From: a bacterium
GTDB taxonomy: Bacteria > Bacillota_I > Bacilli_A > RF39 > UBA660
Direction of reading: 5' to 3'
Length of the DNA: 64,000 nt
Assembly (NCBI GenBank): GCA_029100545.1
Contig: JAQXPH010000021.1
Span: 10,613 to 74,612, forward strand
Below are positions 39,653-60,906 of the stretch, piece by piece. The notes under the pieces are model-generated. The model saw only the letters and a list, made by a program, of their open reading frames with translations. It was not told where the DNA came from and searched no databases. Numbering within the stretch: position 1 is the first letter of the stretch; each line of letters starts with the position of its first letter. Made by a program: the position numbers and the translations under genes.

Positions 39653-40060
39653 CTAAAATATAATTTTTAATATTTTTTTAATTATTTTTGCTTTATTATA
39701 ATAAAATGTTATTTGAACAACTTCATTTTCTTTTAAATTTATATTTGTTTTTAAAGTATATACTTGATAATTTTGATAATTATCATTTAATAAATTTGAT
39801 ATATTATCAATCTTATAACTATATTCACTATTATTTATCTCCATTTTATTATTTAAAATTAATTTGTCAGAGTTTTCTACTAAAATGTTAACTTTAATAA
39901 AACCATTTTCATAAATACCATAAGTATTAAAATTACTATACGATTCTAAAAAAAATGAAAGGATAATAAAAATAATAAATATGACTAAAAATATAATTAA
40001 AAACAAATTATTTTTATATTTAATATTTTGTAAATAATAATATCTACTTTTCATGTTCAC
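39653..40060 (-). CDS. small single-TM protein, candidate bacteriocin accessory or immunity protein
   Basis: 135 aa, TM LFLIIFLVIFIIFIILSFFL, beta-rich C-terminal part. It overlaps the ABC gene stop by 17 nt. Confidence 0.5.
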   Translation of the reverse strand: MNMKSRYYYLQNIKYKNNLFLIIFLVIFIIFIILSFFLESYSNFNTYGIYENGFIKVNILVENSDKLILNNKMEINNSEYSYKIDNISNLLNDNYQNYQVYTLKTNINLKENEVVQITFYYNKAKIIKKILKIIF

Positions 40061-42101
40061 CCTTTAAAGTAATAACTCGATCAAACAAATTATCTTGCTT
40101 TTTATGTGATACATAAATAATAGTTTTTTCTGGATATTCTCTAATGATGTTTTTTATTATTGTTTTTTCCATAAAATAATCCGTTTCACTAAGTGCCTCA
40201 TCTAAAATTAATATTTTACTATTTCTTAGTAAAGCCCTTGCTAAAATAATTCTTTGTTTTTCACCTCCTGATATATTAATCGAATCATTACTTATTCCAA
40301 AATCATATCTTAATTTTCTTTTATTAACAATTAAATCAATTAAACAAATTTTACAAACTTTATTAAAATTACTTTCATCTTCATAATTAAATAAAATATT
40401 ATTTTTTATTGTATCAGTATATAAATTTTCTTTTTGGCCAACATAAATAATATTATCTTTTATTGTATTAAGACTATAATCATTAATATTTATACCATTT
40501 ATATATATACAACCATTATTTAAAGAAAAATCTCTAGTAAGAAGCTTACATAAACTGCTTTTACCACTACCACTTTTTCCTTTAATCATTATTTTTTCAT
40601 TAGCTTTAACTACTTCACTAAAATCTTTTATAATATAATTATAGTTATCATAAGAAAAACTTATATTTTCTATAATAATATCGCCATTAATTAGTTCTTT
40701 ACTTTCACCAATTTTTTCCTCTTTTATATTTATAAAATCACATATTTTATTAAAACTTGCTCGTAAAAAATTATATTTTGGTATTAGTGATACTATATTT
40801 TTAATGGGGCTCATAAAATAAGATAAAAATGTATTGTAAATAACCAAACTAATTAAAGAGAACTTATTATTATAAATTAAATAAAATCCATAAGTATTAA
40901 TTATAAAAAATGATAGTTCATAAAAAATATTTTTAAGTGTTTCAAAAAAATTTATACTTATATTAAAAGAATAATTATCAAAAATCAAATTGCAAATTTT
41001 ATTTTCAATTTTATTTAAAATATTTTCAGTTTCATTTAAATTTTTTATACTATTTATCATATCAATATTTTCTAATAAAATAGTATTAACCTCAGTTTGA
41101 TATTCAATATTTTGTCTAATTCTTTTATATAGATATGGACTAATTAAAATAGAAATTATTATATAAATTAATACAAATATAATTAATATAAAAGTTATTT
41201 TAATATTTATATTTAAAAGAACTATAAAGGAAGCAAGGCAAATCATTAAGTCTAAAAATGCAAAAATAAATATTTGTGAAAATAATTCTTTAATACTACT
41301 AATTTCATTTACTCGCGACATTATTTCACCACTGCTTCTTGATTCAATAACATTTAAAGGAAGATGAAATAAATGATTAATAAACTCCTTAAAAACACTA
41401 ACATCAATATTTTTATTAATATGATTTTCATAATATTTTTTTAAATAATCAAAAATAATTTTAAAGACTATACAAAGTAAAAATATAAATATTAATATTT
41501 TAATTGTATTTTGAAATGCATTGTTTGAAATAAATTCATTCATTACTTTAAAATACATTCCAGATATTATAGTAATAATTGTTAATAAAAAACTACATAA
41601 TAATGCATTAATACATAATTTTTTGTTTTTTATTAAAATTTTTATAAAAAGATTATAAATACTATTTTCTTTTTCTAATAAAATAATTTTATCTTTAGGA
41701 GTAAATTGCAAAACAACGCCAGCAAATATTTTATTAAACTCTTCTTTAGTCATTTTAATCTTGCCTTTACTAGGATCCATTAAAATGTAATTTGATCCTT
41801 TAATTTCATATAAGCACATAAAATGTGTAAGACCATTATCATATTTAACATGTACAATCGCAGGCAAAATAATATTATTTAAATTTTTATCTTCAATTTT
41901 TTTAGCTATAGCATCAAATCCATACTTTTCCGCGGCTTTAAGTAAATGATAGACACTAACCCCCTGCATTGATGTATAAGTATCAAGTCTAATCTTTTCT
42001 ATTGGGACATAACCATTATAAAATTTTATAATAGATTGAAGACAACAAGCACCACAATCTTTTACATCTCTTTGACAAACTATTACCATCTTATTTTTCA
42101 T
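40044..42101 (-). CDS. peptidase-C39 bacteriocin ABC exporter (SunT/LagD/ComA type)
   Basis: C39 residues QRDVKDCGACCLQSI, HFMCLYEI, MDPSKG. Six TM. NBD GKSGSGKSS, ISGGEKQRIILARALL, ILILDEA. Confidence 0.9.
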   Translation of the reverse strand: MKNKMVIVCQRDVKDCGACCLQSIIKFYNGYVPIEKIRLDTYTSMQGVSVYHLLKAAEKYGFDAIAKKIEDKNLNNIILPAIVHVKYDNGLTHFMCLYEIKGSNYILMDPSKGKIKMTKEEFNKIFAGVVLQFTPKDKIILLEKENSIYNLFIKILIKNKKLCINALLCSFLLTIITIISGMYFKVMNEFISNNAFQNTIKILIFIFLLCIVFKIIFDYLKKYYENHINKNIDVSVFKEFINHLFHLPLNVIESRSSGEIMSRVNEISSIKELFSQIFIFAFLDLMICLASFIVLLNINIKITFILIIFVLIYIIISILISPYLYKRIRQNIEYQTEVNTILLENIDMINSIKNLNETENILNKIENKICNLIFDNYSFNISINFFETLKNIFYELSFFIINTYGFYLIYNNKFSLISLVIYNTFLSYFMSPIKNIVSLIPKYNFLRASFNKICDFINIKEEKIGESKELINGDIIIENISFSYDNYNYIIKDFSEVVKANEKIMIKGKSGSGKSSLCKLLTRDFSLNNGCIYINGININDYSLNTIKDNIIYVGQKENLYTDTIKNNILFNYEDESNFNKVCKICLIDLIVNKRKLRYDFGISNDSINISGGEKQRIILARALLRNSKILILDEALSETDYFMEKTIIKNIIREYPEKTIIYVSHKKQDNLFDRVITLKGEHEK

Positions 42102-42295: not shown

Positions 42296-42790
42296 TTGAT
42301 TAATAAACAAAATTTATGGTTTATAACTTTATTTGCACTTATTTTAATTTTAGGAATTTATTATATTACATTACCTGATAGTGCAATCCCTACTTTTTCA
42401 GCTGATGAAACAAACTTGCAAAGTACAATTGAAGTTAAAGATTCTGACATAATTATTGCTCTTAAAGTTGAAGAAGAAGAAAAAATCTTAAAAGAAATGG
42501 AAGATGCTCAAAAAATATTACTAGATAATGCTGCTACTACAGAAGAAAAAAATGCTGCATATGAAACATTACAACAACTAAACTATAAAAAAGGTAAAAT
42601 TGACGAAATAGAAAAATTAATTAAAGAAAAATTCAATATTAATTCATGTGTTAAAATCGAAGGTAACAAAATAAATATTACGCTATCTTGTGAAGATAAG
42701 GGTGCAGAATTTGCAAATAACATTATTAAAGAAGTTCAATCACTTTATAATAACCAAATGTATATAACAATTAAATTTCAAAGTAAATAG
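42296..42790 (+). CDS. spoIIIAH: stage III sporulation protein AH
   Basis: MINKQNLWFITLFALILILGIYYIT and the C-terminal EEKNAAYETLQQL...IEGNKINITL align by eye with B. subtilis SpoIIIAH (KKQTVWLLTM..., AEGDKINITV). Confidence 0.75.
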   Translation: MINKQNLWFITLFALILILGIYYITLPDSAIPTFSADETNLQSTIEVKDSDIIIALKVEEEEKILKEMEDAQKILLDNAATTEEKNAAYETLQQLNYKKGKIDEIEKLIKEKFNINSCVKIEGNKINITLSCEDKGAEFANNIIKEVQSLYNNQMYITIKFQSK

Positions 42791-43135: not shown

Positions 43136-44038
43136 ATGCTAAAAAGACATGCTATAAAAAAAATTATTATATCTACAGGTACACTTCTTATATTTTTTTT
43201 AATTTATTTTTTTCCAAATCAAAATAACTTTTCTATTCCAGAAGAAGTAATTTATATTGATGAATTAACTTTACCACTTTATACAATAGATCAAAACAAT
43301 TATGTTGCAAGAACAAATATTATAAAAAAAGAAAATGATGATATAAATTATATAATAAATGTTTTAACAAAAGGTTCAATTAATTCAAATTATCTACCCA
43401 GTAATTTTTATTCTCCCATACCAAAAGGTACAAAACTAATTGACTATAGTTTAAATGATGGACTGTTAAAGCTTAATTTTTCAAAAGAATTATTAAATGT
43501 TACTGAAGAAGATGAAGAAAAAATGATTGAAAGCTTAATTTATTCATTATGTGAACTTGATAATGTCAAAAATATTATGATTTTTGTAGAAAATGAAAAA
43601 TTAAATGAACTTCCAAATTCTAAAATAAAACTTCCAACTACTTTAGATAAAAGTTATGGTATAAATAAAGTTTATGATATTAAAAATTTTAAAGATACCA
43701 CAAAAACTACAATATATTATTTAAGTAAATATGAAAATGATTTTTATTATGTCCCGATTAGTAAAATAACTAATAGTGATGAAAAAAACTACGTAGAAAT
43801 AATTGTTAATGAATTAAAAACATCGCCAATATATGAAAATAATTTATTAAGTTACTTAAATGCAAGTTATGAACTAGAAAGTTACGAAATACTAGAAAAT
43901 TCTATTACACTATCTTTTAATAATAACTTAATTGCTTCTTTAGAAGATAAGGATTTAGTAGAAAAAGTTAAATATTCAATTTCTCTTTCTTTAAGAGACA
44001 CATATAATCTAGATAATATTATAATTAATATGAATTAA
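43136..44038 (+). CDS. gerM: GerM-like germination protein (two GerMN domains)
   Basis: N-terminal TM. LNDGLLKLNFSKELL...EEKMIESLIYSLCELDNVKNIMIFVENE, with a second similar half. Confidence 0.7.
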   Translation: MLKRHAIKKIIISTGTLLIFFLIYFFPNQNNFSIPEEVIYIDELTLPLYTIDQNNYVARTNIIKKENDDINYIINVLTKGSINSNYLPSNFYSPIPKGTKLIDYSLNDGLLKLNFSKELLNVTEEDEEKMIESLIYSLCELDNVKNIMIFVENEKLNELPNSKIKLPTTLDKSYGINKVYDIKNFKDTTKTTIYYLSKYENDFYYVPISKITNSDEKNYVEIIVNELKTSPIYENNLLSYLNASYELESYEILENSITLSFNNNLIASLEDKDLVEKVKYSISLSLRDTYNLDNIIINMN

Positions 44039-44661: not shown

Positions 44662-46065
44662 TTATTTTATTATATTGCCATCTAAACTAAAACTTTTTGC
44701 ATCAGTTATATTAACTGAAACAATGTTACCTATTTCTTTTTTATCACAAGAAACATTGACAAGTTTCATAGTTTCCGTATAACCATATAATTTTTCTTTG
44801 TCTTTTTCACTTTCACCAATTAAAAGGACTTTAACTACTTTATTTAATAATTTTTCATTACTTTCTTTAGAATATTTGTTAACTAATTCATTTAATCTAT
44901 GTAATCTATTTTCTTTTTCTTCTTGAGATACATCATCTTTCATAAATGATGATGCAGTACCTTTTCTTTCAGAATAAATAAATGTATATGCACCATCATA
45001 TTTACAATAATTTACAATATCTAAAGTTTCTTGAAAATCTTCTTCTGTTTCTGAAGGAAAGCCAACTATAATATCAGTTGTAATAGCTACACCTGGTATT
45101 TTTTCTTTCATTTTATTAAATAATGTAATATATTCTTCTTTAGTATATCTTCGATTCATCTTCTTTAATATTCTATTACTACCCGATTGAATAGGAAGAT
45201 GAATGTAAGGCATAATATTATCATACTTACTTATTACATCAATCATTTTATCAGTAAAATCCCATGGATGAGAAGTAACAAATCTAAGTCTTGGAATTCC
45301 AAGTTTTGCAACATTTTCAAGTAAAGTTGCAAAATCATAACCTAAATTTAAATCTTTTCCGTAAGCATTAACATTTTGTCCAAGCAATGTTATTTCTTTA
45401 TAGCCTGAATCTACTAATGCTTTACATTCATTTAAAATACATTCCATTTTTCTACTACGTTCTCTACCTCTTGTAAAAGGTACTATACAATATGTACAAA
45501 ATTTATCACAACCAAACATTACATTAACCCAAGCACAAATATCTGAATCTCTTTTATAAATTATATTTTCTGGAACAATATCACTATTTGAGTGAACTAA
45601 TATATTTTGCTTATCAAGTTTTTCCATTAATAGTTTAGGTAAATCAAAAATATTATTTGGACCTATTACAATATCAACATATTTGTGATTTTTTTCAATA
45701 TCTTCAACTACATCAACTTGACCAGCCATACAACCCATTAAAATAATAATTAAATCTTTTTTTTCTTTTTTTAAATGTTTACATCTACCTAAATAGCCAA
45801 ACACTTTATCATGAGCATTTTCTCTTATTGCACAAGTATTTAATACTACAATATCTGCATTTGCCAATTCTTCTGTTCTTGCAAATCCTAACATTTCTAA
45901 ATATGAAGATATTTGTTCACTATCATGAACATTCATTTGACAACCATATGTTTTTAGAAAATATTTTTTTCCATCGTATATTTTTTTTATTTCATTATCA
46001 ACATCTAAATAATTTATTTTTGTTTTAGATCTATCTTTTGCAATATCATAATTTGGTTTTAACAT
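44662..46065 (-). CDS. miaB: tRNA-i6A37 methylthiotransferase MiaB
   Basis: KYFLKTYGCQMNVHDSE (UPF0004 domain), CDKFCTYCIVPFTRGRERS (radical SAM), C-terminal TRAM. Confidence 0.9.
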   Translation of the reverse strand: MLKPNYDIAKDRSKTKINYLDVDNEIKKIYDGKKYFLKTYGCQMNVHDSEQISSYLEMLGFARTEELANADIVVLNTCAIRENAHDKVFGYLGRCKHLKKEKKDLIIILMGCMAGQVDVVEDIEKNHKYVDIVIGPNNIFDLPKLLMEKLDKQNILVHSNSDIVPENIIYKRDSDICAWVNVMFGCDKFCTYCIVPFTRGRERSRKMECILNECKALVDSGYKEITLLGQNVNAYGKDLNLGYDFATLLENVAKLGIPRLRFVTSHPWDFTDKMIDVISKYDNIMPYIHLPIQSGSNRILKKMNRRYTKEEYITLFNKMKEKIPGVAITTDIIVGFPSETEEDFQETLDIVNYCKYDGAYTFIYSERKGTASSFMKDDVSQEEKENRLHRLNELVNKYSKESNEKLLNKVVKVLLIGESEKDKEKLYGYTETMKLVNVSCDKKEIGNIVSVNITDAKSFSLDGNIIK

Positions 46066-46270: not shown

Positions 46271-46307
46271 TTCGACAAAACTAGAAAAAACTAGAATTAT
46301 TTCGACA
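46271..46307. promoter_or_regulatory. two Spo0A-box-like motifs (TTCGACA = reverse complement of TGTCGAA), 30 bp apart
   Basis: TTCGACAAAA occurs at 46271 and at 46301. Between them lies a tandem AAAACTAGAA x2. The target gene is unclear. Confidence 0.35.
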
Positions 46308-49235: not shown

Positions 49236-49548
49236 TGTTGAAAGAGGCATTATAAAGTGGTCTCCTTTTAATTCAGTAGTATCTGGTAATGAAATGTTAA
49301 ATAGCATTGTAAAAGAAAAAAATAAAATAGCAATGCCTACTTTATCTGATGAGCAAAAAGAAGTTATAGAAAAAAAATTAATTTTAGCACTTTACAGTCA
49401 AAATATAGTTAATATTTATTATTTTCAAAACGGGAAAATTTTAAATATTAAATCAAATATAAAAAAAATAGACTCTACTTACCATAAAATCTATTTTCAA
49501 AATAAAGTTATCTTATTTGAACAAATAATTGAGATTAACCAACTATAA
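49228..49548 (+). CDS. YolD-like protein
   Basis: IKWSPFNSV motif, and it sits directly after a UmuC-like gene. The start is set at the ATG after TGGAGG. Confidence 0.7.
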   Translation: MHNVERGIIKWSPFNSVVSGNEMLNSIVKEKNKIAMPTLSDEQKEVIEKKLILALYSQNIVNIYYFQNGKILNIKSNIKKIDSTYHKIYFQNKVILFEQIIEINQL

Positions 49549-50398
49549 AAAATCTTGTAAATAAGAAAAATAAAATTAATGCAGTAACAAGTAACACAGC
49601 CACAGTACAAATTATTTTAACATTTTTACTAACTTTTGGTTTTTCGTCTTTGGAATTTCCAGCTTTCTCACCTTCTATAATTGGAGCTGATTCCATAACT
49701 GGTTCAGTTTGATTAATAATTGGTGTCTCAGTTGGAGTTTGCACTGGCTCAGCAGGCGTTTCAACTACAGGAGTTTGTACTGGTTCAGCAGGTGTTTCAA
49801 CAACTGGAGTTTGTACTGGCTCAGCAGGCATTTCAACAACAGGAGTTTGTACTGGTTCAACAGGCGCTTCAACAACTGGAGTTTGCACTGGTTCAGCAGG
49901 CGCTTCAACAACTGGAGTTTGCACTGGTTCAGCAGGAGTTTCAACTACAGGAGTTTGTACTGGCTCAGCAGGAGTTTCAACAACTGGAGTTTGCACTGGT
50001 TCAGCAGGAGTTTCAACTACAGGAGTTTGTACTGGCTCAGCAGGAGTTTCAACAACTGGAGCTTGTACTGGCTCAGCAGGCATTTCAACAACAGGAGTTT
50101 GCACTGGTTCAACAGGCGTTTCAACAACTGGAGTTTGTACTGGCTCAGCAGGCGTTTCAACAACAGGAGTTTGTACTGGCTCAACAGGTGCTTCAACAAC
50201 TGGAGTTTGCATTGGCTCAGCAGGTGCTTCAACTACAGGAGTTTCTACTTGTGCTATTGGCTCTTCAATAGTTTGATTAGCTTCAGGCATTTGAGGCATC
50301 TCAATTACTGGAGTTTGCACTTCATTATTATTTTCAACTTGCTCTTCTGAATTTTCAATTTTTGGTAACTCAATTTTTAAATCATTATTTTCTTCCAT
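49535..50398 (-). CDS. tail-anchored repeat protein, (TPVVE[TAM]P[AV]EPVQ) x14
   Basis: ORF track. No signal peptide. C-terminal TM IICTVAVLLVTALILFFLF. RBS AGAGGT and a TATAAT lie upstream. Confidence 0.75.
   Translation of the reverse strand: MEENNDLKIELPKIENSEEQVENNNEVQTPVIEMPQMPEANQTIEEPIAQVETPVVEAPAEPMQTPVVEAPVEPVQTPVVETPAEPVQTPVVETPVEPVQTPVVEMPAEPVQAPVVETPAEPVQTPVVETPAEPVQTPVVETPAEPVQTPVVETPAEPVQTPVVEAPAEPVQTPVVEAPVEPVQTPVVEMPAEPVQTPVVETPAEPVQTPVVETPAEPVQTPTETPIINQTEPVMESAPIIEGEKAGNSKDEKPKVSKNVKIICTVAVLLVTALILFFLFTRFFIVG
49733..50236. repeat. 14 head-to-tail copies of a 36-bp unit (in-frame coding tandem repeat)
   Basis: The + strand unit is approximately GGAGTTTGYACTGGYTCAGCAGGNGTTTCAACWACA, counted directly in the sequence. 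A partial 15th copy follows. Confidence 0.9.
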
Positions 50399-50466: not shown

Positions 50467-50817
50467 TTAATTTTTGGGTTTGAAAAATATACAAATTATA
50501 AACGCAAATACAATTGCCGCAGTTATTGCAAGAGAACTTTTACATAAAAGTCCCGAAAATATTCCTAATATTCCTTCATTTTTGAAGCCTTCCATACCAC
50601 CTAAAAAAAGCATATTACCAAAATTCATTATTAAAATAGTAGCTCCCACTCCACATTTTTCTATTAAAGTTGGATAAATACCCAAAAATGCTAATATTGC
50701 ACCAATAACGGTAAATATTGAAGTAATATGTCCTGGCGTAAGTTTAGTATTATCTAGAATTATTTGACCAATCATACACACAAATCCCGCTAGTAAAAAT
50801 GCATTTAAATATATCAT
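50467..50817 (-). CDS. spoVAE: stage V sporulation protein AE (SpoVAEB type)
   Basis: 116 aa, 4 TM, GHITSIFTVIGAILAFLGIY pattern. Overlaps the spoVAD stop. Confidence 0.85.
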   Translation of the reverse strand: MIYLNAFLLAGFVCMIGQIILDNTKLTPGHITSIFTVIGAILAFLGIYPTLIEKCGVGATILIMNFGNMLFLGGMEGFKNEGILGIFSGLLCKSSLAITAAIVFAFIICIFFKPKN

Positions 50818-51788
50818 GATAACACCTCAATTTTTACTGCATGACTAATTGCAGGAACCGTTTGATGTTGATTAACTAAAACTGGTGTATGAAGAGAACC
50901 ACTTCCAACAAGCAAAATTCTTTTATATTTTTTACTTTTTAAAATTTTTGTAAAAAATATAAGTGGTAGACAGCAAGGACCAGATCCTCCTGAATACATC
51001 TGACTATCTAAAAATATTTCACAACCTGCATCCATAATTTTATTTAATTTTTCATGATAAATTGTTTCATAATATTCTTTTAAAATATCTAATCCCACAC
51101 ATCCTAAATCACCTGTTAAAATCAAATCATAATCTTTCATAGTTTCATTATTATTTTTTAAAAAATTATAAATTGTATCTGCACAAGCTGGAGCCATAAT
51201 TGCTCCCATGTGATTTACATCATTTATTCCCAGATTTATTACCTTACCTACTAAGGCCGAAGAAACTTTTATATTAGTTTTATCATTTGACAAAATTGCG
51301 CCTGTACCTGCGGTTACTGTACATGTAGCAGTGGTAGGTTTTGGTGCACCATATTCCACCGGATAACGATATTGTCTTTCCGCAGTTAAATTATGCGAAG
51401 ATGTTAAACAAATAATATTTTTAGCATTTTTACTTTCAATTAAATTAGCCCCTAAAATAATAGAAAGTGGAAAAGTTGCACAAGCTGCATAAACTCCAAT
51501 AAATGGAATATTATAATCCATCATAGTATAGTTTGAAATTGCAATTTGATTTATTAAATCCCCTGCTATTATATAATTAATATTTTCTTGGCTTAAATTA
51601 TTTTTATTAAGTAAATTAAGAATTACTAATCTTTGCATTTTGATTTCTGCAAGTTCAAAAGTTTTTTCTTCAAAATAATAATCATCAAATTTTAAATTAT
51701 AATTTGTTATCTTACTATCTTTTTCTTTAGGACCAACAATAGTGAAATAATCTTTAATATAAACATTATTAAAATTTAAATTAGCCAT
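50814..51788 (-). CDS. spoVAD: stage V sporulation protein AD
   Basis: Thiolase-like fold, IKDYFTIVGPKEKDS...GVYAACATF. Confidence 0.88.
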   Translation of the reverse strand: MANLNFNNVYIKDYFTIVGPKEKDSKITNYNLKFDDYYFEEKTFELAEIKMQRLVILNLLNKNNLSQENINYIIAGDLINQIAISNYTMMDYNIPFIGVYAACATFPLSIILGANLIESKNAKNIICLTSSHNLTAERQYRYPVEYGAPKPTTATCTVTAGTGAILSNDKTNIKVSSALVGKVINLGINDVNHMGAIMAPACADTIYNFLKNNNETMKDYDLILTGDLGCVGLDILKEYYETIYHEKLNKIMDAGCEIFLDSQMYSGGSGPCCLPLIFFTKILKSKKYKRILLVGSGSLHTPVLVNQHQTVPAISHAVKIEVLS

Positions 51789-52218
51789 AAAAAACCACCT
51801 TTATTACACATAAAATAAAAGCTGATATAATTCCATATAATAAAACTGATCCTGCAAGTTTAAAAAAATTAGCGCCAAGACCGGTTATCATTCCATCTTT
51901 TTTATATTCCAAACCACAACTAGTTATACTATGGGCAAAACCGGTTGTAGGAACAATAAGACCACATTTTGTTTTAGTAACCCAATCATCAAAAAAATTA
52001 AGACCAGTAAATAAAGATGCTAAAAATATTGTAATTAAACATACAACACTATAACTTACCTTTACTGACATGCCAAATAATATAACTAGTAGTCTAGAAA
52101 TTATTTGACCAGATAATCCTAGTAATCCTCCTACTACAAAAGCAATTAACATATTTTTTAATTTGTTTTGTTTAGGATACTTTTTTTTAACAAGATTTTT
52201 ATACTCTTCTTTATCCAA
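51781..52218 (-). CDS. spoVAC: stage V sporulation protein AC
   Basis: YKNLVKKKYPKQNKLKNMLIAFVVGGLLG resembles B. subtilis SpoVAC. TTG start. Confidence 0.85.
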   Translation of the reverse strand: MDKEEYKNLVKKKYPKQNKLKNMLIAFVVGGLLGLSGQIISRLLVILFGMSVKVSYSVVCLITIFLASLFTGLNFFDDWVTKTKCGLIVPTTGFAHSITSCGLEYKKDGMITGLGANFFKLAGSVLLYGIISAFILCVIKVVFYG

Positions 52219-52221
52219 AAT

Positions 52222-52258
52222 AAATCACCATTATTATTATTTATTTAAATGGTGATTT
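52222..52258 (-). terminator. hairpin between sigF and spoVAC (weak terminator or attenuator)
   Basis: AAATCACCAT-17 nt-ATGGTGATTT. Only a short T-run follows. Confidence 0.3.
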
Positions 52259-52263
52259 TATAC

Positions 52264-52902
52264 TTATAAAGTCAAAAATCTTTGCATTTTATCTAAACCT
52301 TTTTTTTCATATCTTGAAACCATTACTTGAGTCATAGATAATTTTCTTGCAACTTCACATTGAGTTAAATCTTCAAAATATCTAGACTTAATAATATTTC
52401 TTTCATCCTCTGAAAGCATTTCCAAACTTTCATCAATTAATATTTTATCATCAACCGAAACTTTTTCTTCACTTTTTATAGTATCATATAAACAAACATT
52501 TTCTTCACTATCAAGACTCATTATACTTTGACCTGCCATTACTGCTTCATAAATCTTTCCTTTATCTATTTCAAGGAAATTAGCAACATCATCATAACTT
52601 GGAACAATGCCACTATTTTGAGTAAGAGAAAGTCTTGTTTGTTCAATTAATTTATAAAGTTTTAAAATATCCTTATTTATTTTAAGAGGTCTATTATTAA
52701 CTAATAAATACATTTCTCCATAAATATAATTGTAAGCAAAACTTGTAAACTTAGCATTAAAACTTTCATCATATTGCTTATAAGCTTTTAAAAGACCTAG
52801 AACTCCTGCTTGAAATAAATCTTCCTTAGGATAACCATAAAATTTTTTAGCAATATCATAAATAAGGCCAGCATTTTGATTAATAATTTCTTCTTTATTC
52901 AT
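52264..52902 (-). CDS. sigF: sporulation sigma factor SigF-like (SigB/F/G group)
   Basis: Region 2 DLFQAGVLGLLKAYKQYD...FTSFAYNYIYGEM. Region 4 QCEVARKLSMTQVMVSRYEKKGL. Located between spoIIAA and spoVAC. The ATG at 52902 is preferred over the TTG at 52914. Confidence 0.8.
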   Translation of the reverse strand: MNKEEIINQNAGLIYDIAKKFYGYPKEDLFQAGVLGLLKAYKQYDESFNAKFTSFAYNYIYGEMYLLVNNRPLKINKDILKLYKLIEQTRLSLTQNSGIVPSYDDVANFLEIDKGKIYEAVMAGQSIMSLDSEENVCLYDTIKSEEKVSVDDKILIDESLEMLSEDERNIIKSRYFEDLTQCEVARKLSMTQVMVSRYEKKGLDKMQRFLTL

Positions 52903-52903
52903 A

Positions 52904-53236
52904 TTAAACCTCAATAGTTTTTAATGCTGTAAGTTCATTATCAAGTTTCTTTATATGTAATTTATGTAATTTTTTATTTAAATATTTATTTACTTCACAT
53001 ATGTACATAATGCCCTTATTATTTTTTATTGCAAATTTAGTATTTAATAATGCATCTAATCCATTATCATCAATATCATCAAGATAATAAAAATTATAAA
53101 CTAAATATTTTATTTTATGTTTTAGTAATACAGGAACTAAATAATTATTAACTTTGTAAGATGTAGAACGATTTAATACACCATCAAGTCTTACAAAAAG
53201 TATTCCTTTATCATATTCTAAATTCATTTTTAACAT
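52904..53236 (-). CDS. spoIIAA: STAS-domain anti-anti-sigma factor SpoIIAA-like, with Asp at the phospho-serine position
   Basis: ILFVRLDGVLNRSTSYKVNNYL...LVYNFYYLDDIDDNGLDALL aligns by eye with SpoIIAA VLNLEDLSFMDSSGLGVIL. The start is set after AAAGGAAAA. Confidence 0.65.
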   Translation of the reverse strand: MLKMNLEYDKGILFVRLDGVLNRSTSYKVNNYLVPVLLKHKIKYLVYNFYYLDDIDDNGLDALLNTKFAIKNNKGIMYICEVNKYLNKKLHKLHIKKLDNELTALKTIEV

Positions 53237-53293
53237 ATTATATTTTCCTTTTCTATAAATAATATAGTTCATTTTTATTTAAGTTTAAACAAC

Positions 53294-53352
53294 TTCGACA
53301 AAACATGTCAAAAGTTTTAATTATTATATATTTTTATTATTATTTTTCGACA
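53294..53352. promoter_or_regulatory. two Spo0A boxes upstream of spoIIAA-sigF
   Basis: TTCGACA at 53294-53300 and 53346-53352 (minus strand TGTCGAA), 60-115 bp upstream of the spoIIAA start. Confidence 0.55.
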
Positions 53353-54058: not shown

Positions 54059-54928
54059 CTAATTACTATCTAAATAACTTGCCATATGTCTAGCCCATAA
54101 AAAGAAGAAATATGATTTTGGATGAATACCATCGCTTGAAAATGATTCATCATTTAAAAAATAACTATTTTCTAAAAAATCAACATTTTGATCTATTGCA
54201 AGTTTTTTTAATTCTTCATTAAATAGACTTTGATATGAAAAACAATTATCATTTAATATAGCATTACTACTCGTAGGTAAAATAGAATTTATAATTATTT
54301 TAGTATTTGGTAAAGCATTTTTGATGTTTTCTATAGCATTTTTATAATTTTGAATAAATGCTTGTACATTACCATTAAGCATTTTTAAATCATTAGCACC
54401 ATATGCTAAAAATAAATAACTAGGATTTTTTTGAATTAAAGTTGGTAAATCCAAATTCATATTATCTACTCTTCTACCACGATGCCATACTACACTTTCA
54501 TTATTTAAAACGCCATAACAAGATAATCCTTCACCCATAGAATCGCCAACAACAACAGCATTCTTATTAAGAAATATTGCCCTTGCTTGTTCATTGGAAA
54601 TGTTATCAATTTGATATAAATCATCACTAGGAAGATTGTATCCATTATTATTAGAGGTATTATTATCTAAATTATCATTTATTATATTTTCATCAGGATT
54701 TTTTTCTTCATTACTATTAATTACTTCGTTTTCTATGATATCATTTTTATTTTCTTCTTCCGAAGTAGTTTCACTATTAATTATAATTACATCATTATTT
54801 TTTGTTTCATTAACAATTAATACACGATTATTTAATGAAAAAGAATAACTACTTAATAAATAAATAGTTACCGCTAATAAAAAGATTAAAAGAATTATAC
54901 TATAAAATTTTACTACTTTTTCTTCCAT
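54059..54928 (-). CDS. membrane-anchored SGNH/GDSL hydrolase
   Basis: VVGDSMGEGL (block I), YGANDL (block III), SSDGIHP (block V). N-terminal TM and an acidic Asn-rich linker. Confidence 0.8.
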   Translation of the reverse strand: MEEKVVKFYSIILLIFLLAVTIYLLSSYSFSLNNRVLIVNETKNNDVIIINSETTSEEENKNDIIENEVINSNEEKNPDENIINDNLDNNTSNNNGYNLPSDDLYQIDNISNEQARAIFLNKNAVVVGDSMGEGLSCYGVLNNESVVWHRGRRVDNMNLDLPTLIQKNPSYLFLAYGANDLKMLNGNVQAFIQNYKNAIENIKNALPNTKIIINSILPTSSNAILNDNCFSYQSLFNEELKKLAIDQNVDFLENSYFLNDESFSSDGIHPKSYFFFLWARHMASYLDSN

Positions 54929-55019
54929 TATACTTCCTTAACACTATAATAAGTATAAAAATAAATAATAAAAAAAGCAAGTTTTTAACTTACTTATACA
55001 AATAATTTTACAAAAAAAA

Positions 55020-55487
55020 TTATTTATTTTCTAATGCTAAAAAATTATCTTTAATTATACTAGCGTATTCATTATCCATTACAAGTAAGATTAAATTGCC
55101 TTTGCTTTCAACCATTACATTTTCTTCTTCAACTTCAACACATATCCACTTTCTAGGATTTACTTTTTCTTTTATTTCTTCTTTAATACTATTAATATTA
55201 CTAGTATCATCAAGTCTAATTAAAACAACTGAATGCGCTATTGAAGACATAAGTGGTTCACTAGCAAGAGCCTCTTTATAAGAAAAATCTATGTCTCCTA
55301 AATAATACTGTTTATTATCTTCTGTTACATTTATTTGTTCAAGTTTAGGAAAATCACTTGGAACACCAATATATAATTTATCCATAATTTCACTTAAATT
55401 ACCCTCAATATTTTGAACTTTATTTTGACATCCAAAAATAAAAAATATTGAACAAATTATAACTATATAATAACTTATTTTTTTCAT
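55020..55487 (-). CDS. lipoprotein (DUF4358-like)
   Basis: Lipobox IFFIFGC. The size and context match the small lipoproteins found beside MBOAT/DHHW genes. Confidence 0.55.
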   Translation of the reverse strand: MKKISYYIVIICSIFFIFGCQNKVQNIEGNLSEIMDKLYIGVPSDFPKLEQINVTEDNKQYYLGDIDFSYKEALASEPLMSSIAHSVVLIRLDDTSNINSIKEEIKEKVNPRKWICVEVEEENVMVESKGNLILLVMDNEYASIIKDNFLALENK

Positions 55488-55499
55488 ACTACTACCTTT

Positions 55500-56573
55500 C
55501 TATTTAATTGCAAAACTATTATTTATTATTAATGTAGAATACATAAATATTATATCACTATTATCATCAAAATTTAAGTCATTAATTTTATTTAAATGTC
55601 TACTATTTACATATCTTAAGTCTACTAAAGTAATTTTTGAATAATCTTCGATAAGTAATGGAACTAAACTACTTGCAAATGAATCACGAAAAATAATTAA
55701 GTTTTTATTATCCTTATTATTTTGATTTTCAATAAAAAGTATTGGAGTTGCTCCAGATAAAAATATATCATAACTATCTATATTTTTTAAATTATCTTCA
55801 TTATATACTTTTTGATATTCACTCTTTTCATAGTTGTATACTTTTGCATTATTTATTACATAATTTGTATTATAAATTAATGTATCAGGTTTTACGATAT
55901 TATCTCCATACAAAGCACCATAAAATGGATAATATTCATTTTCTATATAATTTTCACTCTTTATTTCTAAATTAAGATTACTTTGAATTTTATTTAAAAC
56001 ATTTTGTAAACATTCTTGTTTCCAATGTATATCAGTTTTATAATATGAATCTAATGTTAAAGAAGATGTAATATCAATCCATTTTAAGTAATCAAGACTA
56101 TATTTTAATTTATTTTTCATATATTCATAATCAATTTTAGGAATGTTTTTATTATCTAAATAATAATTTTTATCTGGAATCATTATAAAATATTTATTTT
56201 GATTTTCATTTAAATAGTTATCATTTATATAATTTATTTTATTAATTAAATTATCAATTGATTTATCATTAATAGCACTATCAATTTGAAATAAATAACC
56301 ATTTTGTTCATATATTCCATTATTTTCTTCCATAAGCATTATTTTTTTTGAGGTAAATCCTTTAAGTTTTTTAAAAGAATCTCTAAAAGGAAATTGATCT
56401 AAAAAATAATTATCTAATTTTTTTGAAAAATCGTTATTAATAGTAATTTTAGGAAATGATACTAAATGTCTTCTTTCACTAAAAGAAATATCTTTATCTT
56501 TTAAAATAATACCTAAAAACATAAATAAAAAAATTGTAAACATAAATAATATTGAATTAATTTTATCTTTCAT
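55500..56573 (-). CDS. DHHW-family protein (AlgX/AlgJ/PatB-like O-acyltransferase partner)
   Basis: N-terminal TM, YKTDIHWKQ (DxHW motif), RDSFASSL. Confidence 0.7.
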   Translation of the reverse strand: MKDKINSILFMFTIFLFMFLGIILKDKDISFSERRHLVSFPKITINNDFSKKLDNYFLDQFPFRDSFKKLKGFTSKKIMLMEENNGIYEQNGYLFQIDSAINDKSIDNLINKINYINDNYLNENQNKYFIMIPDKNYYLDNKNIPKIDYEYMKNKLKYSLDYLKWIDITSSLTLDSYYKTDIHWKQECLQNVLNKIQSNLNLEIKSENYIENEYYPFYGALYGDNIVKPDTLIYNTNYVINNAKVYNYEKSEYQKVYNEDNLKNIDSYDIFLSGATPILFIENQNNKDNKNLIIFRDSFASSLVPLLIEDYSKITLVDLRYVNSRHLNKINDLNFDDNSDIIFMYSTLIINNSFAIK

Positions 56574-56582
56574 AAATACCTC

Positions 56583-57980
56583 TTAAAATCTAAAATATAA
56601 AAATGGATTAGTTGAATCACTAATTATAAATGCAGTACATAAAATTAATAATATAATATAAAAAATTGGTTCTAAAAAATTAATTGCTTTATTAATTTTT
56701 TTATTTTCTTTTAATTTGTTAATTACATTTTTTAAAAGTGGTGTAGATGCAATAATACTTATTATTAAAACAAATAAATAATTTACAAAATAATATAAAG
56801 TTTGGGAATTTATAAAAGATATATTATTAAATCCAAACATATTTTTAAATGCCAATAAAAGCCCTGTTAATGAATCATTATAAAACATTACAAAACCTAT
56901 TACTACAACTATATTTGTCCATAATAAACCAATAATTTTATGCTTATCAAAAAAGTTTAATAAAAACTTTTTTTCAATTATTAAGATAATTCCAAAATAT
57001 AAACCCCATAATAAAAAACAATAACTTGCTTTATGCCATAAACCTGTTAATAACCAAACGATTAATATATTTAAATATTTTCTAATATTATTAACTTTAT
57101 TTCCTCCAAGTGAAATATAAATATAATCTTTAAACCAATTAGTTAATGAAATATGCCATTTGCGCCAAAATTTTGTAAGTGAATTTGTCCAAAAAGGATA
57201 ATCAAAGTTTTCTAAAAAATGAAAACCTAACATTAAACCAAGGCCTATTGACATATCACTATAACCAGAAAAATCAAGATAAAGTCTTAGAATATCTGAT
57301 ATAGCTTTAAGCCATGCTGAAATAATAGTTTGATTTTCAATAAGAGTTAAACTTTGAATAAATTTTCCTAGTACATCTGCTAGTAAAACTTTTTTAGAAA
57401 GTCCAATTACAAAACGACTAATTCCTTTAGAAAACATTTTAAAAGACATATTTCTTTTTTCAATTTCATTTTGAACATCATTATATCTAATAATTGGTCC
57501 TTGAACTAAAGTACAAAACATACTTAAATAAGTTGCATAATATATAATATTTTTTGCACTTTTTGTTTTTTCCTTATATACATCAATTAAATAACTTGCA
57601 TTTTTAAATGTAAAGAAACTTATTCCTAAAGGTATTAGAATATTCAATAAAGATATGTTAGTTTTAAATAATAGATTTATATTTTCAATAAAAAAATTAT
57701 AATATTTAAAATAAAATAAAACTAAAAAATTTATAGTTAAACCAATTATTAAATAAAATTTTCTTTTTTTATCTTTATTTTTTTCAATTAACTTACTTAT
57801 AAAATAGTTAAATATTATAGAAAAAATAAATAATAAAAAATATCTTACTTCACCATAAAAATAAAATATTAAACTACTTATAAGTAATACTATATTTTTA
57901 TATTTTTTTGGAGCAAATATATATAATATTAACATAATTGGCAAAAAATAATATATAAATGTAATACTAGAAAATACCAT
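56583..57980 (-). CDS. MBOAT-family membrane O-acyltransferase (AlgI/DltB/PatA-like)
   Basis: MVFSSITFIYYFLPIMLILYIF, FWRKWHISLTNWFKDYIY, LLTGLWHKAS (conserved His). Confidence 0.88.
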   Translation of the reverse strand: MVFSSITFIYYFLPIMLILYIFAPKKYKNIVLLISSLIFYFYGEVRYFLLFIFSIIFNYFISKLIEKNKDKKRKFYLIIGLTINFLVLFYFKYYNFFIENINLLFKTNISLLNILIPLGISFFTFKNASYLIDVYKEKTKSAKNIIYYATYLSMFCTLVQGPIIRYNDVQNEIEKRNMSFKMFSKGISRFVIGLSKKVLLADVLGKFIQSLTLIENQTIISAWLKAISDILRLYLDFSGYSDMSIGLGLMLGFHFLENFDYPFWTNSLTKFWRKWHISLTNWFKDYIYISLGGNKVNNIRKYLNILIVWLLTGLWHKASYCFLLWGLYFGIILIIEKKFLLNFFDKHKIIGLLWTNIVVVIGFVMFYNDSLTGLLLAFKNMFGFNNISFINSQTLYYFVNYLFVLIISIIASTPLLKNVINKLKENKKINKAINFLEPIFYIILLILCTAFIISDSTNPFLYFRF

Positions 57981-58469: not shown

Positions 58470-59294
58470 TTATTTCCAAACAAGATTATATCTTAAATTT
58501 CTTAAAAATAAATCCCATATATTTGCTTTTTTAACATCTTCTTTTACTGTTATATCTACTTCATTAATTATTTTATTATCTTCATTTAATATTTGTACTT
58601 TTCCTATTACATTTCCTTTTTTTACTGGAGCAACTATTTTTTCTATATCTATTTTAAAATTATATTTACTTACTTTATCGTTTACATTTAAAAGTTCTAT
58701 TGCATCATTTACAAGTACTACATCTACATATTCTTTTTTACCTTTTTCTACTTTAACTTTTCCTAATACTTCTTTTTTATCTTTTATTAAATTTACTTTA
58801 TATGTATTAAATCCATAATTTAAAAGTTTTACTGTATCTTGACTTCTTTTTTCAATTGATTCTTCTCCCATTACAACACTTATTAATCTTAAATTATTTT
58901 TCTTCGCTGTTGCGGTTAAACAATAACCTGCTTTTGCTGTATATCCTGTTTTAAGTCCATCTACTCCATCATAAAATCTTACCAGTTTATTTGTATTAAC
59001 AAGCCATATTTGTGAACCATCAGGTTTTTGTAAATATTCTTCATAAACTTTTGTATAATCTAATATTTTTTCATATTTTAAAAGTTCTTTTGCCATAATA
59101 CCCATATCATAACTTGAAGAATAATGATTTTCATCATCAAGGCCATGAACGTTGACAAAATGTGTATTTTTTAGATTTAATTTCTCTGCTCTTTTATTCA
59201 TCGCTTCAATAAAAGATTCTTTAGATCCATAAGTTTTTTCTGCAAGAGCAACTACTGCATCTATCGCTGTTACTAAAAAGCAGTAAAAAAGAGT
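58470..59294 (-). pseudogene. 3' two-thirds of a D-alanyl-D-alanine carboxypeptidase (PBP5/DacB/DacF-type) gene; the 5' part is absent
   Basis: ...DAVVALAEKTYGSKESFIEAMNKRAEKLNLKNTHFVNVHGL, KTG box GLKTGYTAKAG, and the C-terminal domain are present. The signal peptide and SxxK motif are absent, and the frame is closed by TAA codons at 59296-59304. Confidence 0.75.
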
Positions 59295-60906
59295 TTAAAT
59301 TTAAGCTGCTACCCGCACCAAGTATATTAAGTTTAAAATGTAACATTACTTTATGAACGTTATCATCTTCTAGTCTTTCAACATATATAGTATCTATTAT
59401 ACTTCCAAATATTCTAAATACTCCCTCATCATCAACTAAAATTATACTTTTTATTTTTTTATAAAAATTATCTATACTATCTTTATAATTATCTTCTTTT
59501 GAAACCAAAAAATAATCATTCTTTTTCTTTTCTAGAATATCTAAATCAAAATTATATTTTTCTCTTCCAATATTATATTCTTCACTATCTATTTCTTTTC
59601 TAGCTCTCATATTAATTAGTTCTGCCTTAGCACTTTTGATATCTTCTATTTTTTTATCTATATCATTTATTTCTTTAATATAATCTTTATTAACCATTGT
59701 TTCACTTATTACATCATATATTTCTTTTATAATTTCACTTTCTTTATTTAAGAAAATACTCGCCATTTTTTTAAATATATCTAGTAATTCTTCGTAATGA
59801 ATTATTGGTGTATTACAACCATTTACTTTTTCTTTACCATATTTTCTATAATTAGAACACCCCCAATATTTACTCATCAAACCTGTTCTTTTATTCTTAT
59901 AACCACCTTTTATAAAAGTTGCTCCATCATGATAACATTTAATCTTACCAGATAGAGCATATCTCATATCTGTTCTAGTATTTGTTTTGTGTTTATGAGA
60001 ATTCTTATCCAATATCTCATTGCATTTTTTCCATAGTTCTTCCGATACAATTGGTGGACAACTCTCATTATCTTTATATACAATCCATTCATCTGGCTTA
60101 AATCTTATTCTTTTTCTTGAATGATAATCAACAGTAGTTTCTTTATGAGCACAAAAATATCCTTTATATTTTGGATTTCTAATAATTCTTCCAATTACAG
60201 TTCCAGCAAGTGGTTTATTAGTTTTACTCTTTATATTATATTTATCAAATAAATAATGACCTAGTTTAGATGTTCCCATATATTCTTTACTATATTCATT
60301 AAAGATTAATCTTATTAGTTCTGCTTCTTCTTCTACTATCTCTAACTTACCTTTATTTTTTTTATAACCATAAAAATTATCATTACCAGGAACTACTCCT
60401 TTTTCAATACTTCTTTTATATCCAAATCTAATTCTTTCTGATAATTTTCTTATTTCATCTTGAGCAATAGATGACATAATAGTTAAACGAAGTTCCGAGT
60501 CTGAATCAAATGTGTTTATATTATCATTTAAGAAAAATACACCTACATTATTAAATAATAATTCTTGCGTGTATTTTATACTATCAACAGTATTTCTTGA
60601 AAATCTTGATATTTCTTTTGTTAGTATTAAATTAAATTTACCTTTTTTAGCATCATTAATCATTTTAAGAAAATTATCACGTTTATTTACACTAGTACCT
60701 GATATACCTTCATCTACATAACCAGGAACAAATGTCCAATTATCTTGTCTTTTTATATAATTTTCAAAATACATAACTTGATTTTCTAATGAATTCAATT
60801 GTTCTTCATGATCTGTTGACACACGAGCATAAAATGTAACACGAAGTGGTAGTTCAATAAGTTTTTTACCAGTAGCTAAAATATTTCTAATTTGATACAA
60901 ATTCAT
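59221..60906 (-). CDS. large serine recombinase
   Basis: Resolvase domain FYARVSTDHEEQLNSLENQ and SRFSRN, recombinase domain, Cys-rich zinc ribbon (KCYHDG...GCSNYRKYGKEKVNGC), coiled coil. The last ~30 codons run into dac-derived DNA. Confidence 0.9.
   Translation of the reverse strand: MNLYQIRNILATGKKLIELPLRVTFYARVSTDHEEQLNSLENQVMYFENYIKRQDNWTFVPGYVDEGISGTSVNKRDNFLKMINDAKKGKFNLILTKEISRFSRNTVDSIKYTQELLFNNVGVFFLNDNINTFDSDSELRLTIMSSIAQDEIRKLSERIRFGYKRSIEKGVVPGNDNFYGYKKNKGKLEIVEEEAELIRLIFNEYSKEYMGTSKLGHYLFDKYNIKSKTNKPLAGTVIGRIIRNPKYKGYFCAHKETTVDYHSRKRIRFKPDEWIVYKDNESCPPIVSEELWKKCNEILDKNSHKHKTNTRTDMRYALSGKIKCYHDGATFIKGGYKNKRTGLMSKYWGCSNYRKYGKEKVNGCNTPIIHYEELLDIFKKMASIFLNKESEIIKEIYDVISETMVNKDYIKEINDIDKKIEDIKSAKAELINMRARKEIDSEEYNIGREKYNFDLDILEKKKNDYFLVSKEDNYKDSIDNFYKKIKSIILVDDEGVFRIFGSIIDTIYVERLEDDNVHKVMLHFKLNILGAGSSLNLNSFLLLFSNSDRCSSCSCRKNLWI
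59294..59337. other. candidate att site (hybrid attL/attR) of the recombinase element
   Basis: Imperfect inverted repeat TTTAAATTTAA-22 nt-TTAAGTTTAAA (10/11 match) located exactly where dac homology ends. Confidence 0.35.

Follow-up and report, generated by a model that had tools for sequence, protein, structure and literature searches.

A SpoIIAA-type STAS gene joined directly to sigF, with no spoIIAB between them, in a clade of uncultured gut Bacilli

The STAS-sigF locus and its two proteins

The 64-kb stretch of DNA analyzed here (23.5% G+C; hereafter, the window) derives from an uncultured gut member of Bacilli, probably of the order RF39, and carries on its minus strand a gene encoding a 110-amino-acid STAS domain protein (52904 to 53236), followed at once by a gene for a SigF-type sporulation sigma factor of 212 amino acids (52264 to 52902). 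The stop codon of the STAS gene (TAA, 52906 to 52904) is separated by a single nucleotide from the start codon of the sigma factor gene (ATG, 52902 to 52900), and a GAGG motif is located 7 nt upstream of the latter. Read along the minus strand, the order is a DUF308 membrane protein gene, an intergenic region, the STAS gene, sigF, a terminator-like hairpin, spoVAC, spoVAD, and spoVAE. The three spoVA genes, all on the minus strand, were assigned by their domain matches: spoVAC at 51781 to 52218 (PF03862, 1.6e-24; TIGR02838, 1.8e-39), spoVAD at 50814 to 51788 (PF07451, 6.5e-98), and spoVAE, which is of the SpoVAEB type, at 50467 to 50817 (PF03862, 4.4e-22; TIGR02839, 5e-32). Apart from the STAS and sigma factor genes, no further open reading frame (ORF) of at least 50 amino acids was present on either strand between 52264 and 53272, which leaves no room for the 146-amino-acid SpoIIAB. 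The original prediction for this locus had described a STAS stop codon directly abutting the sigma factor ATG, with spoVAC-AD-AE behind them and no spoIIAB in between, and both the measured 1-nt gap and the ORF map agree with that description. Translation of the STAS gene likely starts at ATG 53236 rather than at an upstream ATG (53272); the resulting protein begins with MLKMNL and has 110 amino acids, as in all homologs.

The STAS protein is an ortholog of SpoIIAA, as judged from its sequence, its predicted fold, and its synteny with the spoVA genes. It matched the Pfam STAS domain with an E value of 4e-9, and its best curated NCBI family was SpoIIAA (TIGR02886), at a score of 33.5 bits that is below the equivalog cutoff of 114.75. 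When sequences in the PDB were searched with phmmer, the best match was SpoIIAA of Geobacillus stearothermophilus (9e-8), and SpoIIAA of Bacillus subtilis was also found; the alignment to SpoIIAA (1TH8_B, 1AUZ) was gap-free over residues 2 to 87. An AlphaFold model built with 32 family members reached a mean predicted local distance difference test (pLDDT) score of 94, and the top Foldseek matches to this model were the SpoIIAA chains 1THN_B and 1TH8_B from SpoIIAA-SpoIIAB complexes (template modeling [TM] score of 0.91, 28% identity). The UsfX-RsfB complex 8IH8 was likewise among the fold matches. Of the traits that characterize SpoIIAA, the protein has the STAS fold (a beta-alpha sandwich) in a chain of about 110 to 117 amino acids and the position as first gene of a sigF operon; it lacks the conserved serine, a score above the curated cutoff, and an adjacent SpoIIAB.

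The sigma factor is of the group 3 sigma-70 type, with Pfam regions 2, 3, and 4 all present. Among NCBIfam models, SigF (TIGR02885) scored highest, with 133.6 bits, ahead of SigG with 102.3 and SigB with 82.9, all of these being below their cutoffs (321.45 for SigF). The best PDB match was sigma-F of G. stearothermophilus (1L0O_C, 9e-28), with query residues 3 to 204 aligned to chain residues 30 to 240. Since this alignment begins at residue 30 of 1L0O_C, about 27 N-terminal residues appear to be missing compared to Bacillus sigma-F. Judged by its sequence, the protein is a divergent, fast-evolving SigF ortholog. Together with the downstream spoVA genes, the matches of the two proteins thus point to SpoIIAA and SigF orthologs of a fast-evolving lineage.

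Conservation of the arrangement, the phosphosite, and the promoter

A protein search returned 175 relatives of the STAS protein at 90% clustering, and scanning one genome per species yielded 73 loci, each comprising 10 kb on either side of the match. Four contigs found via exact protein identity (L001 to L004) and nine contigs with more distant representatives (L078 to L086) were analyzed as well. In all 73 species loci and in L001 to L004, the sigma factor gene starts no more than about 16 nt from the STAS stop codon, or the two ORFs overlap. STAS and sigma factor genes are also directly adjacent in eight of the nine wider-family contigs, the ninth (L080) ending too early to judge. The STAS-sigma factor layout without spoIIAB is lineage-wide, being found in more than 80 genomes. 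The upstream neighbors of the gene pair vary and encode a DUF308 protein, TrkH, a LytR-CpsA-Psr (LCP) protein, or a secreted protein, and in L084 a prolyl-tRNA synthetase gene lies downstream, where spoVA genes would be expected. Because the neighbors vary on both sides, sigF is the only constant partner gene of STAS.

To find SpoIIAB, the G. stearothermophilus sequence, taken from a PDB alignment, and the B. subtilis sequence were used as queries in phmmer and jackhmmer searches with filters off; the targets were 3120 ORFs of at least 40 amino acids from the window and L001 to L077, together about 1.1 Mb. Nothing was found in these ORFs below an E value of 0.03. A marginal match in L039 (E = 0.034) was not an ATPase by Pfam, and a 136-amino-acid ORF 5' of STAS in L086, which has the size of SpoIIAB, encodes a small membrane protein rather than a kinase. 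None of the genes directly upstream of STAS in the close or the wider family encodes a kinase, and Pfam scans of the large window ORFs revealed none of the domains HATPase_c, HATPase_c_2, PP2C, and SpoIIE. As phmmer easily found the SpoIIAA (9e-8) and sigma-F (9e-28) of this clade, a SpoIIAB ortholog should be detectable wherever the DNA was sampled. A KEGG orthology (KO) survey (Microb Genom 2024; PMC10868615) reports in one sentence that spoIIAB and spoIIE are reduced or absent in RF39, with absence called by DRAM/KOfam cutoffs or E values of at most 1e-23.

The phosphosite of SpoIIAA can be located in the STAS protein by the gap-free phmmer alignment, in which DDIDDNG of this protein lies on TFMDSSG of SpoIIAA. 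Asp57 (in the numbering of the 110-amino-acid protein) corresponds to Ser58 of B. subtilis and Asn58 to Ser59, as the original prediction had it, and in the AlphaFold model residue 57 opens helix alpha-2, just as Ser58 does in SpoIIAA. This Asp is not conserved among relatives. In an alignment of 74 close species, the column contains Glu in 49, Asp in 8, Asn in 5, Ser in 4, Val and Leu in 2 each, and Ala, Pro, Gln, and Phe in 1 each, so that Glu or Asp accounts for 77%; Asp56 and Gly59 are invariant in the same alignment. When 1.84 billion representative proteins were searched with a profile, the family grew to 496 STAS relatives, the best 150 of which are short and AT-rich in type and have the same I-D-x-x-G motif. 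Among 137 full-length representatives of this wider family, the site has an acidic residue in 28, Ser or Thr in 22, a hydrophobic or aromatic residue in 47, a basic residue in 20, and an amide in 16, and the Asp and Gly of the motif were kept at 93%. Depending on the protein, the contigs L078 to L086 have Leu, Ser, Glu, Glu, Leu, Ser, or Ser at this site. Species that retain Ser, some of them with the full DSSG motif, equally have no spoIIAB beside STAS. Since the column varies while its Asp and Gly flanks hold, the phosphosite position is unconstrained, and the Asp of the window protein is one of many residues tolerated there.

The intergenic region 5' of the STAS gene carries two exact minus-strand matches to the Spo0A (0A) box TGTCGAA, a predicted proximal box with the core TTTGTCGAA (53294 to 53300) and a predicted distal one (53346 to 53352). 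Both had been pointed out previously, and the proximal box turned out to be phylogenetically conserved. TGTCGAA occurs five times in the window, compared to 2.0 copies expected, and two of these lie within the 159-nt intergenic region. Among the 73 species, 71 have TGTCGAA 5' of the STAS start, nearly always at positions -58 to -64. The density of 0A boxes upstream of STAS is 3.8 per kb versus 0.14 per kb across all loci, a 27-fold enrichment. The distal box at about -114 is conserved in the closest relatives only, and at least two upstream boxes were found in 12 of the 73 species. Anchoring the upstream regions on the box gave the consensus TTTTGACA-N4-TTTGTCGAA-N2-TGTTTAAAA-N16-CTATATT, followed by the ribosome-binding site. 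The window contains a putative sigma-A-type promoter, TTTAAA-17 nt-TATATT (53261 to 53289, minus strand), both hexamers of which fall inside family-conserved blocks (TGTTTAAAA and CTATATT), and the proximal 0A box ends 4 nt 5' of the -35-like hexamer TTTAAA. Spo0A activates a sigma-A promoter at spoIIG of B. subtilis, and by analogy the STAS promoter appears to resemble Spo0A-activated sigma-A promoters of this kind. A TTGACA hexamer within the conserved TTTTGACA element (53306 to 53311, minus strand; family consensus TTTTGacA), 4 nt 5' of the proximal box, was rejected as the -35 element, being too far (39 nt) from the conserved -10-like hexamer; it may represent an inverted 0A-like half-site.

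At the other end of the gene pair, the terminator-like hairpin at the sigF/spoVAC junction (52222 to 52258, minus strand) consists of an 11-bp stem and a 15-nt loop followed by UUUAUUUU, with a folding energy of -11.5 kcal/mol and a z score of -2.86. A consensus terminator scan did not call it, probably because its loop is long, and its role as a terminator is putative. A second perfect pair of 0A boxes is located elsewhere in the window, at 46271 to 46277 and 46301 to 46307 on the minus strand. These boxes are 30 nt apart and intergenic, 5' of and in the same orientation as a gene for a MiaB/RimO-type radical-SAM methylthiotransferase (44662 to 46065, minus strand). Four of the five 0A boxes of the window are thus arranged in promoter-proximal pairs.

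The STAS gene shows the signs of a maintained function. The ratio of nonsynonymous to synonymous substitution rates (dN/dS), estimated from close, gap-free pairs only, was 0.02 to 0.18 in 12 of the 15 closest pairs listed, and STAS is therefore under strong purifying selection. For the 49 species in which all five genes are present, pairwise protein distances averaged 0.417 for STAS, 0.39 to 0.42 for SpoVAC, SpoVAD, and SpoVAE, and 0.484 for the sigma factor; STAS is conserved to the same degree as the SpoVA spore proteins. Invariant or nearly invariant residues include K28, N30, N31, K39, H40, and K41 of helix alpha-1, which likely face outward, and A62, L64, N65, and K67 of helix alpha-2. 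In the published complex, the side formed by alpha-1 and alpha-2 is the face that SpoIIAA offers to SpoIIAB. The STAS proteins of the clade are basic (median isoelectric point [pI] of 9.4, net charge of +7), and their sigma-F proteins are acidic (pI of 5.5); for B. subtilis SpoIIAA we assume a pI of about 5.9.

Sigma-F control in the clade

SpoIIAA, SpoIIAB, SpoIIE, and sigma-F are counted among the core components of endospore formation and are regarded as the textbook case of cell-specific activation by partner switching. The locus described here shares with the spoIIAA-spoIIAB-sigF operon of Bacillus and Clostridium its orthologous first and last genes, the location 5' of spoVAC, spoVAD, and spoVAE, 0A boxes in the promoter, and, in most relatives, a dacF-like S11 carboxypeptidase gene a few kilobases upstream. 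It differs from that operon in that the middle gene spoIIAB, which encodes the anti-sigma factor and serine kinase, is absent and the Ser58 position is not conserved. Furthermore, the clade STAS is basic rather than acidic, and the clade sigma-F is shorter by about 40 residues. The promoter also sets it apart: spoIIA of B. subtilis depends on sigma-H, whereas the clade promoter looks sigma-A-like, with the 0A box beside its putative -35 element.

A single-domain STAS protein acting in a SigF-type pathway without serine phosphorylation has a parallel in Mycobacterium tuberculosis RsfA. RsfA acts on the anti-SigF factor UsfX and thus works through an anti-sigma factor of the RsbW/SpoIIAB type, whereas none was found in the clade DNA searched. 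Examples of small STAS proteins with a partner that is not an anti-sigma kinase, and possibly is a sigma factor, are MlaB-MlaF, SypA, and RbaV (PMC8256260, PMC7367683). Unlike the clade STAS, MlaB, SypA, and RbaV are not SpoIIAA orthologs, nor do their genes accompany that of a sporulation sigma factor, and most of them keep a cognate kinase and phosphatase. That spoIIAB and spoIIE are reduced or absent in RF39 has been noted once, in a single KO line of PMC10868615, the RF39 passages of which do not mention a retained SpoIIAA, a degenerate phosphosite, STAS-sigF coupling, or a Spo0A promoter. Our literature search likewise found no description of a retained SpoIIAA ortholog, a degenerate phosphosite, strict STAS-sigF coupling, or a conserved Spo0A promoter.

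The empty slot of spoIIAB and the state of the phosphosite make it quite likely that the canonical phosphorylation switch of SpoIIAA, SpoIIAB, and SpoIIE has been lost, and the textbook sigma-F activation switch probably cannot work in this clade. Our preferred model, to which we assign a probability of roughly 0.55, is that this switch has been dismantled and that STAS acts independently of phosphorylation. According to this model, spoIIAB would have been cleanly deleted from the spoIIA locus, and with SpoIIAB, and probably SpoIIE, lost, the kinase/phosphatase partner switch would no longer operate. Spo0A~P would turn on the operon, and STAS and sigma-F would be produced together. STAS would then bind a protein without being phosphorylated, via the alpha-1/alpha-2 face with which SpoIIAA normally contacts SpoIIAB. 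As sigF alone is always linked to STAS, sigma-F is the most economical candidate for this protein; it would be the likeliest partner, held or chaperoned until the forespore forms, although direct binding of STAS to sigma-F is a tentative proposal. An anti-sigma factor unrelated to SpoIIAB could be bound instead. It is tempting to speculate, if with considerable doubt, that STAS is a phosphorylation-independent anti-sigma or holding factor for sigma-F, which would amount to a two-protein minimal forespore switch of a large gut clade. In such a circuit, a single Spo0A-driven transcript would supply STAS and sigma-F in a fixed ratio, and release in the forespore might occur by turnover of STAS or by transient absence of the STAS gene.

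This large and abundant uncultured gut clade has kept sigma-F, a conserved SpoIIAA relative, and predicted Spo0A control without an operon kinase and without a fixed phosphosite. It would either activate sigma-F differently or run a simpler circuit, ancestral-like or reduced, and it offers a concrete, testable case for the question of what a minimal forespore switch consists of. It is also relevant for marker-gene predictors of sporulation, which now score these organisms as non-sporulating.

Several points weigh against the preferred model. The kinase search covered 64 kb of the host genome and about 1 Mb of relatives, and SpoIIAB may have moved elsewhere or diverged strongly, or the genome may encode another SpoIIAA that contains the Ser. 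To our knowledge, the clade has no cultured member, and no spores have been seen. The case for direct STAS-sigma-F binding comes from gene linkage, and rate covariation between STAS and the sigma factor (mirror-tree analysis with partial correlation) was not distinctive, the partial r of 0.39 being the same as that for the sigma factor and SpoVAC. The basic charge of STAS may be due in part to the lysine enrichment of an AT-rich genome. Finally, the published absence call for spoIIAB and spoIIE is weak, though supportive, since the clade STAS would itself probably fail the DRAM/KOfam cutoffs applied in PMC10868615.

These points leave space for other explanations. STAS might have been kept for a task unrelated to sigma-F, such as the sensing of nucleotides or small ligands, or membrane or transport regulation as by MlaB, with sigma-F under transcriptional control by Spo0A only. 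STAS-only proteins with non-kinase partners are described in the case of MlaB-MlaF (PMC7367683) and among the noncanonical cases reviewed in PMC8256260, the invariant D-x-x-G loop is the one proposed for nucleoside triphosphate (NTP) binding in STAS domains (Aravind and Koonin 2000, cited in PMC8256260), and the undistinctive covariation of STAS with sigma-F would fit as well. Such a task is rather unlikely, considering that the coupling of STAS to the sigma factor gene is exceptionless across the family while the neighbors vary, with sigF as the sole constant partner gene. Alternatively, the canonical switch could persist, with diverged SpoIIAB and SpoIIE encoded elsewhere, perhaps along with a second, Ser-containing SpoIIAA, in which case the STAS protein studied here would be an accessory paralog. 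With only about 20 kb covered per relative beside the 64 kb of the host genome, a distant kinase gene might have escaped the search, and since the clade proteins lie far under the curated cutoffs (33.5 versus 114.75 bits for STAS and 133.6 versus 321 for SigF), absence calls based on thresholds are unreliable. We nevertheless consider persistence of the switch unlikely: the kinase slot is empty in more than 80 genomes, the ease with which phmmer finds clade SpoIIAA and sigma-F implies that SpoIIAB should show up in the sampled DNA, and a kinase acting on STAS would have kept its acceptor Ser conserved, which is not the case. The STAS protein takes the place of SpoIIAA and is the best match to it, which speaks against an accessory paralog.

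The original prediction had proposed a rewired partner-switching mechanism with Asp as a phosphomimetic. Its view that the canonical switch is unlikely to operate, given the missing spoIIAB and the Asp at the site, is retained here, while selection for a phosphomimic, by which SpoIIAA would be locked in the "phosphorylated" form, is quite improbable. The S58D variant of B. subtilis SpoIIAA does behave like SpoIIAA-P, and the prevalence of Glu and Asp among the close species would be in keeping with such a role. Even there, however, the site also accommodates N, S, V, L, A, P, Q, and F, and most proteins of the wider family, whose genes are arranged in the same way, have no acidic residue at it. 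If a negative charge were needed, Lys, Ile, or Leu should not be accepted. Acidic residues are generally favored in the first turn of a helix, and this preference seems to be the best explanation for the frequency of Glu and Asp at the old phosphosite, which are probably not a selected phosphomimic. A phospho-acceptor that lost its constraint once the kinase was gone is a better description than phosphomimicry. Loss of kinase and Ser might, on the other hand, represent stages in the erosion of a decaying sporulation program that has no working sigma-F control. The clade genomes are reduced, no spores have been reported, and one prediction tool gave RF39 metagenome-assembled genomes a sporulation probability of 0% (PMC12536801). 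Such a relic is very improbable in view of the strong purifying selection on STAS, the intact and similarly conserved STAS, sigma factor, and SpoVA proteins in 49 species, and the base-for-base conservation of the 0A-box promoter. Homologs of YunB, SpoIIIAH, and GerM encoded in the window and genes for GerE and an S11 carboxypeptidase near the STAS-sigF locus of relatives likewise argue against a dead program.

Neighboring genes and other features of the window

The genes 5' of STAS differ between the close and the wider family. In the close family, this gene usually encodes an LCP protein, which is absent from the window. Where most relatives have the LCP gene, the window contains, at 54059 to 57980 on the minus strand, genes for an MBOAT O-acyltransferase, a DHHW protein, a 155-amino-acid lipoprotein-like ORF product, and a GDSL esterase. 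This cluster, which suggests a cell envelope O-acylation module, also occurs in the 97%-identical genome L005 and in L004, a contig that encodes an identical STAS protein. In L078, L081, L082, L084, and L085 of the wider family, the gene directly 5' of STAS encodes mutually homologous proteins of 389 to 495 amino acids without a Pfam match. Most of these begin with a signal sequence and end in a membrane anchor, and in some the central part is a coiled coil; the called start of the L084 protein leaves it without a signal sequence, and the C terminus of the L085 protein is different.

The dacF/dacB-like gene for an S11 D-Ala-D-Ala carboxypeptidase (minus strand), which is intact in most relatives with 380 to 390 amino acids, appears to be split in the window by an inserted element in the region from 58470 to 60906, extending past 64000. 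The window copy comprises residues 113 to 374 only (59276 to 58491), and the first 112 residues are encoded nowhere in the window. A gene for a large serine recombinase of 561 amino acids (59221 to 60906) directly precedes this fragment and overlaps the break at its 3' end. In another species (L024, 4657 to 7117), the carboxypeptidase gene has the same recombinase (E = 2e-281) at the same site. The arrangement resembles a skin-type element that interrupts the gene for a sporulation penicillin-binding protein, with a 651-amino-acid PfkB-domain protein and an APH-like kinase as its likely cargo.

Just 3' of spoVAE, a gene at 49535 to 50398 (minus strand) encodes a 287-amino-acid protein without a Pfam match that consists mostly of tandem PVVE(T/A)PAEPVQT repeats and ends in a C-terminal transmembrane segment; the repeats produce long shadow ORFs on the opposite strand. 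The alanyl-tRNA synthetase encoded at 31895 to 33646 (minus strand) has only 583 amino acids, with the catalytic and second additional (SAD) domains present and the C-terminal region missing. Typical bacterial alanyl-tRNA synthetases have about 870 amino acids, and the short form fits a reduced genome. At 39653 to 42101 (minus strand), a gene for a 685-amino-acid C39-peptidase ABC exporter of the bacteriocin export type overlaps a 135-amino-acid ORF without a family match. This exporter gene adjoins a lone spoIIIAH-like gene (42296 to 42790, plus strand) and gerM (43136 to 44038, plus strand).

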